Below are positions 20,671-25,105 of a DNA stretch of 64,000 bases, in pieces. The notes below the pieces were generated by a model. The model was not told the origin of the DNA, made no database searches, and was given only the letters and a program-made list of their open reading frames with translations. A program made the translations under genes and the position numbers. This DNA is from Escherichia coli. GTDB lineage: Bacteria; Pseudomonadota; Gammaproteobacteria; Enterobacterales; Enterobacteriaceae. The stretch's first letter is position 1, and every line of letters starts with the position of its first letter. The DNA lies in assembly GCF_016026235.1 (NCBI RefSeq), contig NZ_CP065613.1. One strand, written 5' to 3'.

Positions 20671-21798
<1,128 letters not shown>

Positions 21799-22016
21799 TT
21801 ATGTTGGCGTTTTCTATTCAGTATAGAAGTCGGAGCGGCTGGGCGAGATGCGGAAGTTCTGGAATGTTTCTTTTTTTGATGATGGTGACTGAAGCAAATT
21901 GGCTACATTTTGCAATGTGACCAGTTGCGTCATAGTTGGCTGGCGGCGAAGAATTTTGACGATTGCGGCATGCAGAAAAAAACGGGTTCAGCTTCAGTTG
22001 ATTAAATGAGGAGTGA

Positions 22017-22404
22017 GAAGTCCGAAACAGGATTCACTGTATAAATAAACAGCCATTTTGTTGAGGAAGGGTAAGATAACGGCGGGTGCCTGAAGCTTTC
22101 CGGTTTCAGGTTTACTCTGAGGTCTGGAAAGATGAAGCCCCAGGAGATATTTCTATCAACCCTGGGGCTGCCACTCCAAACCAGACAATTTGGATGGTAG
22201 TTCCTTCTTCGCATGGAGGCAATATAAACATGCTGACGAAATATGCCCTTGTGGCAGTCATAGTGCTGTGTTTGACGGTACTGGGATTTACGCTTCTGGT
22301 CGGAGACTCGCTGTGTGAGTTTACGGTGAAGGAACGTAATATTGAGTTCAGGGCTGTTCTCGCTTACGAACCGAAGAAGTAGCCGTTGTGCGGGGAGTAA
22401 TCCC
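22017..22404 (+). repeat. hok-type locus, tandem copy 1 (5' part and CDS); its 3' end continues at 23699-23796 after the IS
   Basis: Near-identical to 23824-24290 over both coding and non-coding sequence. Confidence 0.75.
22230..22382 (+). CDS. hokE: Hok-family type I toxin (50 aa), copy 1
   Basis: [50 protein letters not shown], with the Hok single-transmembrane signature. Confidence 0.8.
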
Positions 22405-23698
22405 CTGAGGGATCCCCAGAAAATTTAGTAAACCATTATCATATTGGTATACCGTTGCTGTAGAACTTTCAGCCCTGCGTCAAGTGACAGTGTGTTTAGT
22501 ATGAGTGGAGAATGTCGAATCACATTCTCCGCCAGTTTTAATAACGAGATGACTCGCCTGTGCTTCACTGTATTTGCCTGATATTTATGATGTATCCCTT
22601 TGTTTTCCAGGCTGAAACCGCTTAACCACATAATGATACTGGCTAATGTTGCGATCAGACTCAATACCGTGACCCGCCCGGATGAATGACTGGCACCAAA
22701 CCGTAGTCCAAATCCCCAGCGAGGATTTTTTTCATCCCTGAAATTTTGCTCAATTTGCATTCTACGGCTGTATAATTTCATTACCTGTTTTGGCGAGAAC
22801 TCAGTACTGTTTGTGAAAATAAACCATGGTGATTTCCCGGCAGTACGAGCTTTAGCCGTCACCGATGGTCTGGTTGCTCTTTCCTTCGAGCGTTTAAATC
22901 TACGACCTTTAGGCTTACTTTTATAAAGATAAAAATGCCCTTCATGTTGTGCATTTTTATCTCGACCCAGCAGGCCTTCACCTAAATAAATTGCTGTCGT
23001 TGATGCTTTTGTGCCTGAGTCCGACACCTTTTCCCAGCCATTACCAACATTGTAATAATGATTGCCCAGTACCCGGCAAATATAGGTCCAGCCACGGGAG
23101 CGGAGCTGTTGGAACCATCGCCCCTGAAAACCGGCATCTGTAATAACAATGACATCAGTCCCGGGGGAAAAGCACTCAGCAAGCGATTCCAGAAAACGCT
23201 CATGTACATCTGCATTCGCTGTCTGTGATGATGGAACGACACAACTCATCAACGGTAAAGAACGCCCGTCACATGCCAGGCTTGCCCGCAAAAGCTGAAA
23301 ACGAGAGGCATGATAAGCACTCCAGTCAATGAGTATCACAACACGAGACATTCCCCGCGTAATCTTTTGGGTAATTCGCTGAAAAATGGTGGAAACCTCA
23401 TTTTGCAAATGTCGATTCCCCAACAGTCGATCCACCCGCTTTATTTTGTTTTTAACTGATGCCGTACCGGTTAAATGACGCCCGATACTGGTAAGTGTGA
23501 GGGAAGCGCCATTTATTACAGCATTAGTTGCGTCAATCAGTGATTTTTGACGGTAAAGATGCAAAGGGGCCAGTATATTGTTAAGGAAATTTTGGCATAA
23601 TGAACGTGCAGGCATAGTGGTGATCTCCTTGAAATTGTTAGCACAATCAATTAGATCACATCTCACTATGCCTGTCTTGTTTTCTGGGGATTCCTCAG
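22405..23698 (-). mobile_element. IS4-family insertion sequence, probably IS186 (about 1.29 kb)
   Basis: Imperfect terminal inverted repeats CTGAGGGATCCCCAGAAAA and CTGAGGAATCCCCAGAAAA; flanked by a 10-11 bp direct repeat GAGTAATCCC(C); inserted in a GGGG-N6-CCCC target 22 bp after the hok copy 1 stop; one DDE transposase ORF. Confidence 0.8.
22425..23615 (-). CDS. IS4-family DDE transposase
   Basis: 397 aa from the ATG at 23613-23615 (MPARSLCQNF...). Catalytic-region motifs IDWSA, TDAGF and YSRRMQIEQNFRD resemble IS10-type transposases. The 568-aa ORF in the track is read-through into flanking DNA. Confidence 0.85.
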   Translation of the reverse strand: MPARSLCQNFLNNILAPLHLYRQKSLIDATNAVINGASLTLTSIGRHLTGTASVKNKIKRVDRLLGNRHLQNEVSTIFQRITQKITRGMSRVVILIDWSAYHASRFQLLRASLACDGRSLPLMSCVVPSSQTANADVHERFLESLAECFSPGTDVIVITDAGFQGRWFQQLRSRGWTYICRVLGNHYYNVGNGWEKVSDSGTKASTTAIYLGEGLLGRDKNAQHEGHFYLYKSKPKGRRFKRSKERATRPSVTAKARTAGKSPWFIFTNSTEFSPKQVMKLYSRRMQIEQNFRDEKNPRWGFGLRFGASHSSGRVTVLSLIATLASIIMWLSGFSLENKGIHHKYQANTVKHRRVISLLKLAENVIRHSPLILNTLSLDAGLKVLQQRYTNMIMVY

Positions 23699-23758
23699 GA
23701 GTAATCCCCGCATATCCGGTTGTCAGGTCAGGATGGTAAGGCACCTGCTTTACACTTT

Positions 23759-23796
23759 CGCCCGCGGTCAGTGATGGCTGCGGGCGATTTCGTTTT
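23759..23796 (+). terminator. Stem-loop plus T-rich tract: 3' terminator of the hok copy 1 transcript, displaced by the IS
   Basis: GCCCGCGG / CTGCGGGC stem followed by ATTTCGTTTT. Confidence 0.45.
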
Positions 23797-23823
23797 AAGA
23801 GCAATGATGAGTTTTGCCGACAG

Positions 23824-24290
23824 AAGTCCGAAACAGGACTCACTGTATAAATAAACAGCCATTTTGCTAAGGAAGGGTAAGATAACGGCGGGTGCCTGAA
23901 GCTTTCCGGTTTCAGGTTAACTCTGAGGTCTGGAAAGATGAAGCCCCAGGAGATATTTCTATCAATCCTGGGGCTGCCACTCCGAGCCTCAACAACTCGG
24001 ATGGTAGTCCCTTCTTCGCATGGAGGCAATATAAACATGCTGACGAAATATGCCCTTGTGGCAGTCATAGTGCTGTGTTTGACGGTGCTGGGATTTACGC
24101 TTCTGGTCGGAGAGTCGCTGTGTGAGTTCACCGTAAAGGAACGTAATATTGAGTTTAAGGCTGTTCTCGCTTACGAACCGAAGAAGTAGTCGTTGTGCGG
24201 GGAGCAATCCCCGCATATCCGGTTGTCAGGTCAGAGTGGTAAGGCACCTGCTTTACACTTTCGCCCGCAGTCAGTGATGGCTGCGGGCGA
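23824..24290 (+). repeat. hok-type locus, tandem copy 2 (uninterrupted)
   Basis: Aligns to copy 1 and to the displaced copy 1 3' end at 23699-23796, including the terminal hairpin at 24263-24289. Confidence 0.75.
24037..24189 (+). CDS. Hok-family type I toxin (50 aa), copy 2
   Basis: [50 protein letters not shown]; differs from copy 1 at two residues (D/E and R/K). Confidence 0.8.
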
Positions 24291-24310
24291 ATCGTACCAG
24301 ATGTTGTCAA

Positions 24311-24940
24311 TTAATCGTGTTGGCACAGAGTTATGACTATTTTTTCTTTTATCTGCCAGTGCACAGCAAACATCTCATTCTCACGATGAATGATGACCTG
24401 CTGTTTATTCCAGCTAATTATCTGATAGTCCAGAAAACCTGCATCAGTTTGGATCTCACTTGCCTTAAATGCGCTCTCTTTGGCGGAAAATGCCAGTGTC
24501 AGCGCCAGAGAAAAGGCTAAACCGCAGTCTGCGAGTCGCTCGTGTTCTGCTGGTGTAATAATGTTGTCTGCCAATTCGGTCGCTGTTTGCGCAGAAAAAA
24601 TTTCTTCGATATCAACGCCAATCGGTTGACGGGAAACCACGGCCAATGCCGTAGCCCCGCAGTGGCTAATACTGCCGTATACCTCCGCAGGCCACACCGG
24701 TTGGCGTAGCTCGCCGATTGCGGGCACACATTTATAGCCATATTCCCGCAAGGCATAAACAGCAGCGATCCGTCCGGCTAAATGCTCTGTTTTACGTTTA
24801 CGTCCAGCGTGTTGCAGTTGTGCGTAGTGCGGCAGCCAGAGTAAATCCTGCTCACAAAAATTCGCCGGATCGAACTCAACAAAATGCAGCGTATGTCCGG
24901 CAAAGGGGAGGGAGGTATGCGTAGTTTTCATATCGACCAT
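24311..24940 (-). CDS. entD: 4'-phosphopantetheinyl transferase EntD
   Basis: 209-aa reading from MVDMKTTHTSLPF...; the 256-aa ORF in the track extends upstream into the REP element. Confidence 0.85.
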   Translation of the reverse strand: MVDMKTTHTSLPFAGHTLHFVEFDPANFCEQDLLWLPHYAQLQHAGRKRKTEHLAGRIAAVYALREYGYKCVPAIGELRQPVWPAEVYGSISHCGATALAVVSRQPIGVDIEEIFSAQTATELADNIITPAEHERLADCGLAFSLALTLAFSAKESAFKASEIQTDAGFLDYQIISWNKQQVIIHRENEMFAVHWQIKEKIVITLCQHD

Positions 24941-24967
24941 ATCCGAGACTGATGACAAACGCAAAAC

Positions 24968-25067
24968 TGCCTGATGCGCTACGCTTATCAGGCCTACATG
25001 GTCCTGCAATATATTGAATTGGCAAGATTTTTGTAGGCCGGATAAGGCGTTCACGCCGCATCCGGCA
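24968..25067. repeat. BIME: two inverted REP elements, between fepA and entD
   Basis: TGCCTGATGCGCTACGCTTATCAGGCCTAC and TGTAGGCCGGATAAGGCGTTCACGCCGCATCCGGCA; same architecture as the BIME at 19031-19116. Confidence 0.6.
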
Positions 25068-25105
25068 TGAACGACGCGCACTTTGTCAACAATCTGACGT
25101 TAGCA

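Follow-up and report, generated by a model that had tools for sequence, protein, structure and literature searches.

The two short hairpins that an earlier note had picked out in the duplicated hok leaders of this window (the whole 64,000-nt stretch of Escherichia coli DNA that was analysed) cap a conserved stem-loop, the antisense target, in the leader of each of two tandem hokE/sokE units. The stem-loop is already known as the target of Sok in hok mRNA and is no new leader element, and the difference between the copies is real but ordinary, as both versions of the apex, and the frame difference that goes with their loops, are common E. coli alleles. Taken as a whole, we consider it quite probable that the two apices are old alleles of a Sok target in which the need to pair drives covariation, that the frame of the upstream ORF is free to vary, and that copy 1 is crippled.

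The two type I toxin-antitoxin units lie between ybdK and entD, the chromosomal position of K-12 hokE (Table 1). Both Hok/Gef toxin ORFs score above the PF01848 cut-off of 22 bits and share 96-98% identity with proteins named HokE; the copy 1 protein is identical to HokE as annotated in FDAARGOS_943, and copy 2 differs from it by two conservative changes, D26E and R41K, and five synonymous ones. HokE is reported to be toxic when overexpressed (bioRxiv 10.1101/2025.08.07.668861). The two leaders are about 95% identical, and both are full-length matches to RF01794 on the hok strand, for which the gathering score is 59.

Table 1. Features of the tandem hokE/sokE interval (positions are those of the window)
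Feature	Position	Strand	Basis
Copy 1 hok mRNA leader	22084-22229	+	Rfam RF01794 match 22084-22238, 80.2 bits
Putative sok-1	22126-22222	-	-35 TTGCCT 22217-22222, -10 TACCAT 22194-22199, 17-bp spacer
Copy 1 upstream ORF, 22 codons + TAG	22132-22200	+	ORF listing; out of frame with hok
Copy 1 long stem-loop (Sok-target hairpin)	22164-22204	+	Fold -21.5 kcal/mol, z -4.2; paired in Rfam consensus
Copy 1 apex	22175-22194	+	TCCAAA 22175-22180, 8-nt loop CCAGACAA 22181-22188, TTTGGA 22189-22194
Copy 1 hok CDS (HokE, 50 aa)	22230-22382	+	Pfam HOK_GEF 33.3 bits
12-bp target duplication GGAGTAATCCCC	22394-22405 and 23698-23709		Read from sequence with inverted ends
IS4-family IS (ISEc60-like)	22406-23697		NCBIfam transpos_IS4_2 360 bits; ISEc60 annotation in L001
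IS transposase	22428-23615	-	NCBIfam transpos_IS4_2, 360 bits
Copy 1 3' UTR, severed by the IS	23698-23790	+	Terminator scan; homology to copy 2 3' UTR
Copy 1 fold-back element AGGCACCT	23739-23746	+	Homology to copy 2 3' UTR
Copy 1 terminator	23758-23787	+	Terminator scan
Copy 2 hok mRNA leader	23890-24036	+	Rfam RF01794 match 23890-24045, 86.5 bits
Putative sok-2	23932-24029	-	-35 TTGCCT 24024-24029, -10 TACCAT 24001-24006
Copy 2 upstream ORF, 83 codons	23938-24189	+	In frame with hok (ATG 24037), common stop codon
Copy 2 long stem-loop (Sok-target hairpin)	23970-24011	+	Fold -27.4 kcal/mol, z -5.9; covariation
Copy 2 apex	23981-24001	+	TCCGAG 23981-23986, 9-nt loop CCTCAACAA 23987-23995, CTCGGA 23996-24001
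Copy 2 hok CDS (50 aa)	24037-24189	+	Pfam HOK_GEF 32.7 bits
Copy 2 stem-loop GCGGGGAGCAATCCCCGC	24197-24214	+	Equivalent site is the IS target in copy 1
Copy 2 intact 3' UTR	24197-24290	+	Terminal hairpin 24261-24290
Copy 2 fold-back element AGGCACCT	24242-24249	+	In 3' UTR

When the leaders are folded, each 6-bp stem forms the top of a 16-bp stem-loop that lies within the Rfam hok-leader consensus and aligns with the R1 hairpin bearing the mok start, where the 5' tail of Sok binds. The copy 2 positions given in the earlier note, for the hairpin and for the upstream ATG, agree with the sequence, while those for copy 1 (hairpin 22185-22204, ATG 22142, TAG 22208-22210) are 10 too high, the true positions being 22175-22194, 22132 and 22198-22200. 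Its observation that the stem arms differ yet remain complementary is borne out, with all six pairs intact in both copies and two of the six differing on both sides (A-U to G-C). The loops, said to differ by one nucleotide, do differ by one indel in length but also carry two substitutions. Perfect 6-bp stems with loops of 8-9 nt are by themselves not unusual: the plus strand of the window has 40, and shuffled sequence about 32. What lifts the apex stem above chance is the z-scores of the 16-bp stem-loop, the low probability (about 0.003-0.008) that all six pairs would still be Watson-Crick after four random changes among the 12 stem positions, and covariation in relatives.

That covariation was assessed in 41 distinct HokE-like leaders from many genera, against 500 shuffles and slid controls. 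Folded one by one, 49 of 49 HokE-like leaders form this stem-loop, and RNAalifold independently predicts the stem on a structure-blind MAFFT alignment. Paired cells make up 89% of this alignment, compared with 83.8% after shuffling, and cells changed on both sides number 37, compared with 11; none of the 500 shuffles reached either observed value, and slid controls gave 32-54% paired. Within the apical helix, three of the six pairs change on both sides, with a covariation score reached in 0 of 500 shuffles. As pairing in the stem survives changes in both arms across these leaders, the proposal that selection acts on RNA structure is supported. Structural selection in hok mRNAs was itself published between 1997 and 2000. 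The need for the stem to pair would mean that a substitution in one arm is matched in the other. The loop and upper stem evolve quickly and vary more than any other segment of the locus; among 39 distinct units, no other 21-nt window varies as much as the apex.

On the minus strand of each leader, a conserved TTGCCT-17-TACCAT arrangement and a terminator hairpin can be read from the sequence and mark a candidate sok gene. A simple consensus promoter scan found neither hok nor sok promoters, the latter because 8 of 12 consensus positions match; those listed in Table 1 were assigned from conserved hexamers. Judged from the sequence and from alignment with an R1-like plasmid locus (L075), the predicted sok-1 RNA would start at about 22186 and end in the terminator hairpin at about 22126; the sequence of copy 2 places the sok-2 RNA from about 23993 to about 23932. 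Under the model developed for R1 hok/sok by the Gerdes laboratory, and revisited in PMC9841398 and PMC1635323, the stem-loop would form in the 3'-processed, refolded hok mRNA and would first be contacted by the single-stranded 5' tail of Sok, made from the opposite strand of the same DNA, and the resulting duplex would block translation of the leader ORF and therefore also that of hok. The window units resemble R1 in having a Hok/Gef toxin, a structured leader of the same Rfam model with the same long stem-loop, a putative sok promoter that overlaps the 3' side of the stem-loop and the hok SD, a predicted pairing of the 5' and 3' ends (tac/fbi), and an upstream ORF, whose translation hok requires in R1.

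It is conceivable, though doubtful, that the apical stem is selected mainly in Sok itself, with transcription starting upstream of the palindrome, a 5' stem-loop on Sok, and loop-loop kissing in place of tail-loop contact. The T1TAdb paper describes a subgroup of Sok RNAs with such an extra 5' stem-loop, with compensatory substitutions and a -10 box upstream of it (PMC8594479); a TATATT motif lies upstream on the minus strand here (reverse complement of 24023-24028), and the apical 6 bp are nearly all Watson-Crick (174 cells, with 4 G-U and 15 A-C besides), so they could fold on either strand. However, the TATATT motif has no good -35, and the conserved TACCAT/TAACAT with its TTGCCT -35 at 17 bp points, as in R1, to a start within the 3' arm. 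In the lower 10 bp of this helix, moreover, there are 80 G-U pairs as opposed to 15 A-C, the former being C-A mismatches in the antisense, which indicates that it is in the hok sense strand that selection maintains the structure.

Selection on a Sok target in the hok mRNA leaves the loop difference to be considered, and this bears on the ORF upstream of hok. As previously claimed, the change of one base in loop length alters the frame of this ORF, which in copy 1 is 22 codons long and in copy 2 runs for 83 codons in the frame of hok. The upstream ATG lies 98 nt before the hok ATG in copy 1 and 99 nt before it in copy 2, the latter as in K-12 hokE; the copy 1 ORF ends 14 nt short of the hok SD (GGAGG 22215-22219), and that of copy 2 reads through it. 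In natural alleles the ATG stands 98, 99 or 100 nt from hok, that is, in all three frames, so the frame itself is not conserved; a metagenome pattern scan for apex variants also showed all three frames, in 22 contigs only, too few for frequencies. This is the only SD-preceded upstream ATG of Escherichia hokE. R1-type loci, by contrast, have the mok SD (GAGG) and ATG in the 5' arm of the hairpin, 57-58 nt before hok (PMC9841398), as does L075. Neither window copy has a mok-type ORF starting in the hairpin behind a GAGG SD, and a start codon at the R1 mok position is absent from both copies and from E. coli hokE. By its place in the alignment, the -99 ATG is not the positional homologue of the R1 mok start. 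The K-12-type and copy-2-type ORFs share the frame of hok, which R1 mok does not; no literature on mokE was found. In R1, ribosomes translating mok must reach at least the hok SD but need not pass the hok start (PMC9841398). If only translation through the leader matters and not the peptide, the frame would be free to vary as it does. The one-base loop difference shifts the frame of an Escherichia-specific ORF, and copy 2 is arranged as in K-12, with a leader ORF that runs through the hok ribosome-binding site.

A larger difference between the copies, missed by the earlier note, lies downstream, where the IS stands between copy 1 and the regulatory elements of its 3' UTR; the uninterrupted target site is preserved in copy 2. 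In the minimum free energy structure of full-length copy 2 RNA, a type of fold that is unreliable for RNAs of 330-400 nt and lends weak support only, GCGGGUGCCU at the 5' end pairs with AGGCACCUGC at the 3' end, the predicted tac/fbi end pairing; in the truncated RNA, the centroid structure contains the local hairpin. The complementary 3' element of copy 1 is present but 1.3 kb away, beyond the IS. No three-way covariation of a 3' UTR element (GGUUGUCAGGUCAG...) with the apex allele was seen within Escherichia, as this element is nearly invariant across alleles.

It is plausible that the two copies couple hok translation differently, and copy 1 hokE is most likely crippled or deregulated, given that its upstream ORF stops short of the hok SD and that the IS severs its fold-back element and terminator. 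The hok ORF is intact in each copy, however, which argues against long-standing decay of copy 1. Furthermore, the 22-codon allele occurs in about one fifth of E. coli genomes, in some of them in both copies (L004, L021), so it is tolerated and might work otherwise, for instance if ribosomes terminate and then reinitiate 29 nt upstream of hok. In such a scheme, which we consider unlikely, the frame difference would be functional: the short ORF of copy 1 ends in the 3' strand of the hairpin, ribosomes would reinitiate near the hok SD, and the two copies would respond differently. A ribosome terminating at the copy 1 TAG would melt the entire hairpin, an in-frame ATG at 22194 overlaps the stop (ATGGTAG), other genera often have short upstream ORFs ending 43-44 nt before hok, and the allele is present in 1,119 genomes. 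Set against this, all five of the stop codons recovered upstream of the hok start in R1 abolish toxicity (PMC9841398), and copy 1 has lost its 3' elements as well. Many relatives, in addition, lack any recognisable upstream ORF, which would fit a relaxed constraint better than a different design.

Our preferred reading, of a crippled copy 1 beside a K-12-like copy 2, sits within a wider pattern of allelic variation. Apex-centred BLAST queries of 48-49 nt against 5,426 complete E. coli genomes found the copy-1-type apex in 1,119 and the copy-2-type in 1,252, with further apex alleles at 433 and 2,225, and an intermediate GAA/CTC apex is present in E. albertii and others. Two old, common alleles stand next to each other in the window, one with AAA/UUU and a loop of 8 nt, the other with GAG/CUC and a loop of 9 nt; the claim of compensatory change holds for the paired differences but not for their origin within these two copies. 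A YUNR U-turn in the loop (CUCA in copy 2; no U in copy 1) was rejected as a determinant, since the majority K-12 allele and the second copy of O157 are also without YUNR.

Selection for orthogonality, with each Sok recognising its own hok mRNA only, might instead have kept the apices different. Sib/Ibs offers a precedent, in which paralogous cis-antisense RNAs with different short recognition domains reportedly each repress their own toxin mRNA (Han et al. 2010). Here, the 21-nt apex takes in 7 of the 22 sites at which the copies differ (p = 5e-5), the inferred 11-nt Sok tails would bind cognate targets at -19 and -21 kcal/mol as opposed to -8 and -10 for non-cognate ones, and the apex is heterogeneous in most sampled arrays. 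Nevertheless, homogeneous arrays exist (L004, L008, L011, L021), and an excess of heterogeneity was not found: about 4 of 17 tallied arrays are homogeneous, near the approximately 27% expected if alleles paired at random at their observed frequencies. The apex is just as hypervariable in single-copy loci, and the other 40 or so nt of Sok complementarity are nearly identical between the copies. We therefore regard orthogonality as quite unlikely, and selection for insulation between hokE copies is not favoured. A broader form of this idea, in which the sokT apex would be a fast-evolving specificity module insulating tandem copies and one-base changes in its loop length would switch hokE between "coupled" and "uncoupled" alleles, according to whether the leader ORF extends to the hok ribosome-binding site, seems similarly improbable; were it true, both kinds of allele would be frequent in E. 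coli populations. That the complementarity is incidental, the copy 2 apex having been imported from a diverged allele by recombination or gene conversion and its paired changes being selectively meaningless, is highly improbable and largely refuted by the RNAalifold prediction and the shuffled and slid controls: although both apex types exist already as alleles, and a natural chimera (copy 2 of L077) joins a CCAAA 5' arm to a CUCGG 3' arm with two pairs broken, import accounts for co-location and leaves the internal complementarity of each allele unexplained, the covariation across many genera beats all controls, and full pairing after four random substitutions is itself improbable.

With old alleles under selection for pairing as the favoured explanation, the window takes its place among known hok loci. 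It shares with K-12 hokE the ybdK/entD locus, the toxin and the leader, and in both an IS4-family element lies in the same GGGG-N6-CCCC stem-loop directly after the stop codon. K-12, however, has a single copy, with apex AAA-CCCGAACAA-TTT, and its downstream element is IS186/IS421 in place of the ISEc60-like one. A further likeness is to O157:H7 (PV15-279, L081), whose two-copy haplotype also has an 8-nt-loop allele first and GAG/CTC second; without its IS the window interval aligns end to end with this locus at 98.0%, the O157:H7 locus having no IS and a second-copy loop of CCCCAACAA rather than CCTCAACAA. The pair is one of the Hok "islets" formed by local duplication, in which 10% of Hok genes occur in 2-6 copies less than 2 kb apart (bioRxiv 10.1101/2025.08.07.668861). 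That survey covered Hok CDS only, finding Mok hard to define, and does not describe leader or ORF-frame variation.

As a discovery the hairpin matters little, since the structure, its covariation and tandem hok copies are in the literature and the alleles are present in thousands of genomes. The activity of chromosomal hok loci has long been doubted. What this locus does offer is a natural experiment, in which common E. coli hokE alleles carry the upstream ORF in all three frames, with the ORF of one frequent allele ending before the hok ribosome-binding site, and which could be used to test how strictly chromosomal hok loci need translation of a leader ORF.

The feature described here is the known Sok-target stem-loop of a known hokE locus, and its novelty is low. 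The window segment is Escherichia chromosome, in the order ybdK, two hok units, entD and fepA (see table); both hok products match Pfam HOK_GEF and share 96-98% identity with proteins named HokE, and each leader gives a full-length Rfam RF01794 match (80.2 bits for copy 1, 86.5 bits for copy 2). RF01794 is titled 'sok antitoxin', yet it matches the hok sense strand, measures 157 nt and ends at the hok AUG; it is in effect a model of the hok mRNA leader, not of the ~64-nt antisense RNA. Other Rfam matches were a tRNA (419-492, plus), the rnk leader (58172-58280, minus) and the ES036/CssrF sRNA (24990-25031, minus), the last within the 5' portion of the listed entD ORF. A minus-strand 70-aa ORF antisense to the hok leader (22002-22214) matches a RefSeq 'hypothetical protein' that is annotated in many E. 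coli genomes, often marked frameshifted (loci L002, 1206-1474, and L003, 1479-1748), and is probably spurious. In two metagenome contigs (L012 and L020) the hok ORF departs into unrelated sequence after codon 15, and the hokE copy there is therefore disrupted.

Coordinates of features at the tandem hokE/sokE units
Feature	Position	Strand	Remark
ybdK	20671-21789	minus	
RF01794 matches	22084-22238 and 23890-24045	hok sense	
Copy 1 upstream ORF	ATG 22132, stop TAG 22198-22200		22 codons
Copy 1 apex	stem TCCAAA 22175-22180, loop CCAGACAA 22181-22188, stem TTTGGA 22189-22194		
TTGCCT / TACCAT, copy 1	reverse complements of 22217-22222 / 22194-22199	minus	
hok copy 1	22230-22382		50-aa product
IS4-family element	22406-23697		between hok units; NCBIfam, 360 bits
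Transposase of IS4-family element	22428-23615	minus	
AGGCACCT, copy 1 3' UTR	23739-23746		complementary to mRNA 5' end; beyond IS
Copy 1 terminator	23758-23787		terminator scan; beyond IS
Copy 2 upstream ORF	ATG 23938 to hok stop		83 codons, in frame with hok
TTGCCT / TACCAT, copy 2	reverse complements of 24024-24029 / 24001-24006	minus	
hok copy 2	24037-24189		50-aa product
entD	24311-25081	minus	

The earlier note had proposed that compensatory changes preserve a leader hairpin in both copies. The sequences it quoted are present and its copy 2 coordinates hold, although every copy 1 coordinate was 10 too high. Comparison of the copies shows both bases replaced in two of the six stem pairs (A-U to G-C), and one indel and two substitutions in the loop. 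Such 6-bp stems are not rare (40 in the window, ~32 in shuffles); the apex, meaning this stem and its loop, caps a 16-bp stem-loop in each leader (copy 1, 22164-22204, z -4.2; copy 2, 23970-24011, z -5.9), and the probability of all six pairs being Watson-Crick after four random substitutions is 0.003-0.008.

The proposal of structural selection on the leader stem is right. Gultyaev, Franch and Gerdes reportedly described covariation in hok mRNAs in papers of 1997 and 2000, both of them cited by PMC1635323 and PMC9841398. Among 49 HokE-like loci, sampled as one genome per species from ~10 enterobacterial genera, every leader folds individually into the Sok-target stem-loop, which RNAalifold also recovered from a structure-blind MAFFT alignment. 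When a MAFFT alignment of the 41 distinct hairpin regions was compared with 500 shuffles, 89.0% of cells were paired (83.8% in shuffles), 37 cells were changed on both sides (11.1) and the covariation score was 0.257 (0.160); none of the shuffles attained even one of these figures, and a control in which the 3' partner was moved by 1-3 columns left 32-54% paired. Three of the six apical pairs vary on both sides (CG 29 / UA 8; GC 24 / AU 9 / CG 1; AU 32 / GC 1). In the lower helix, G-U cells outnumber A-C cells by 80 to 15, which places its selection on the sense strand of hok; almost all apical pairs are Watson-Crick, so that the strands are indistinguishable there and a variant with a Sok 5' stem-loop (PMC8594479) would also be compatible.

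Sok RNA is 64 nt long, and its 11-nt 5' tail recognizes a stem-loop that forms only once hok mRNA has been truncated at its 3' end and refolded (PMC1635323). The whole stem-loop is paired in the Rfam consensus. On the minus strand, reading by eye found TTGCCT, 17 bp and TACCAT in both leaders, and the GGATGKTAG and GGAGGCAA blocks under these hexamers rank with the best conserved columns of the 49 relatives. A Sok transcript starting ~7 nt past the -10 would have its first base inside the hairpin 3' arm, then cross the loop and 5' arm and finish at a terminator hairpin; because it would begin in that arm and run through the loop, we infer that the apex is the site of first Sok contact. In the predicted minimum free energy structure of full-length copy 2 mRNA, the 5' end pairs with AGGCACCUGC and the apex is engaged in long-range pairs with the 3' UTR, while removal of the 3' part gives a predicted centroid structure containing the local hairpin. 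These modeled folds fit the scheme of plasmid R1.

Apex-centered queries against 5,426 complete E. coli genomes found the copy-1-type apex in 1,119 and the copy-2-type in 1,252, alongside the K-12-type AAA-CCCGAACAA-TTT (2,225) and AAA-CCCAAACAA-TTT (433). Both types found in the window are thus common alleles, whose compensatory changes are old and did not arise in this genome. The haplotype is shared with O157:H7: PV15-279 and strain 120 carry the two-copy array in the same allele order without the IS, and the window interval minus the IS aligns end to end with O157:H7 at 98.0%. E. albertii, Escherichia sp. E1V33 and E. coli 2013C-4282 carry a GAA/CTC intermediate whose loop-closing pair is A-C. 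Copy 2 of locus L077 (~950-990) has a chimeric apex, with a CCAAA 5' arm, a CUCGG 3' arm and two broken stem pairs, a pattern suggestive of two alleles having recombined within the loop. Of all 21-nt windows across 39 distinct Escherichia units, the apex varies most (entropy 0.42; overall value 0.195), and 7 of the 22 differences between the copies fall within it (p = 5e-5).

In functional terms, the IS insertion is the larger difference between the two copies. A 12-bp duplication, GGAGTAATCCCC (22394-22405 and 23698-23709), borders the element, which lies in the GGGG-N6-CCCC stem-loop directly after the copy 1 stop codon, so that copy 1 is parted from the remainder of its own 3' UTR; the same 3' elements are uninterrupted in copy 2 (24197-24290). 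Two different IS4-family elements occupy this stem-loop (window 22394-23709; L002 ~1596-1672), with an ISEc60-like element in the window and FDAARGOS_943 and IS186/IS421 in K-12, and the site appears to be a hot spot for repeated insertion, severing hokE from its 3' fold-back element. Elsewhere, an IS150-type end (…GTCCAACTTTTTGGGGTCAGTAC) adjoins the base of the Sok-target hairpin and the whole upstream leader is replaced (L080 ~300-345; L072 and L064 leaders), at the identical position in an E. coli genome and 'Enterobacteriaceae bacterium 89'. A 568-aa minus-strand ORF spans 22425-24131; the real transposase has 396 aa and starts at 23615, and the remainder, antisense through the copy 2 leader and coding sequence, is almost certainly non-coding. 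The copy 1 3' UTR ends in a terminator-like hairpin with TTTCGTTTTA after it, whereas the copy 2 hairpin is followed by AATCGTACCA, without a T run (23758-23797 vs 24261-24300); this contrast between internal and entD-proximal copies recurs in other genomes.

The upstream frames are as first described, the copy 2 ORF running in frame into hok and that of copy 1 stopping at a TAG. Natural alleles place the upstream ATG at three distances from the hok ATG: 98 nt (22 codons), 99 nt (83 codons, in frame with hok) and 100 nt (62 codons, third frame), and a one-base insertion near the upstream ATG combines freely with an 8- or 9-nt loop. Outside Escherichia, the ATG position is mostly ACG or ACA and many relatives lack an SD-preceded upstream ORF; some relatives have an R1-type GAGG-N7-ATG in the hairpin 5' arm. 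The upstream peptide and frame are therefore not conserved, consistent with the R1 finding that translation matters and not the Mok product. The R1-like IncFII plasmid locus L075 (294-353) has its mok GAGG and ATG at positions aligned with the 5' arm of this hairpin in the Rfam model, mok starting 57 nt before hok and in frame with it; in R1 itself the mok (116-118) and hok (174-176) start codons lie 58 nt apart (PMC9841398), which puts mok out of frame. Among plasmid hok loci, too, the mok frame thus varies through a one-base difference between the two start codons.

R1 mutagenesis indicates that translation must extend at least to the hok SD (PMC9841398). The copy 1 upstream ORF ends 14 nt before GGAGG (22215-22219), whereas that of copy 2 passes through it, and copy 1 would for this reason be uncoupled; its 3' regulatory end has also been severed by the IS. 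Two observations speak against uncoupling: the 22-codon allele is frequent, and neither hok ORF is disrupted, most differences between them being synonymous. Copy 1 hok may be reached by reinitiation. That the two copies may differ in translational coupling is a reasonable suggestion. The remaining interest of the locus lies in its leader ORF, whose frame is naturally polymorphic, and in its hypervariable recognition apex.
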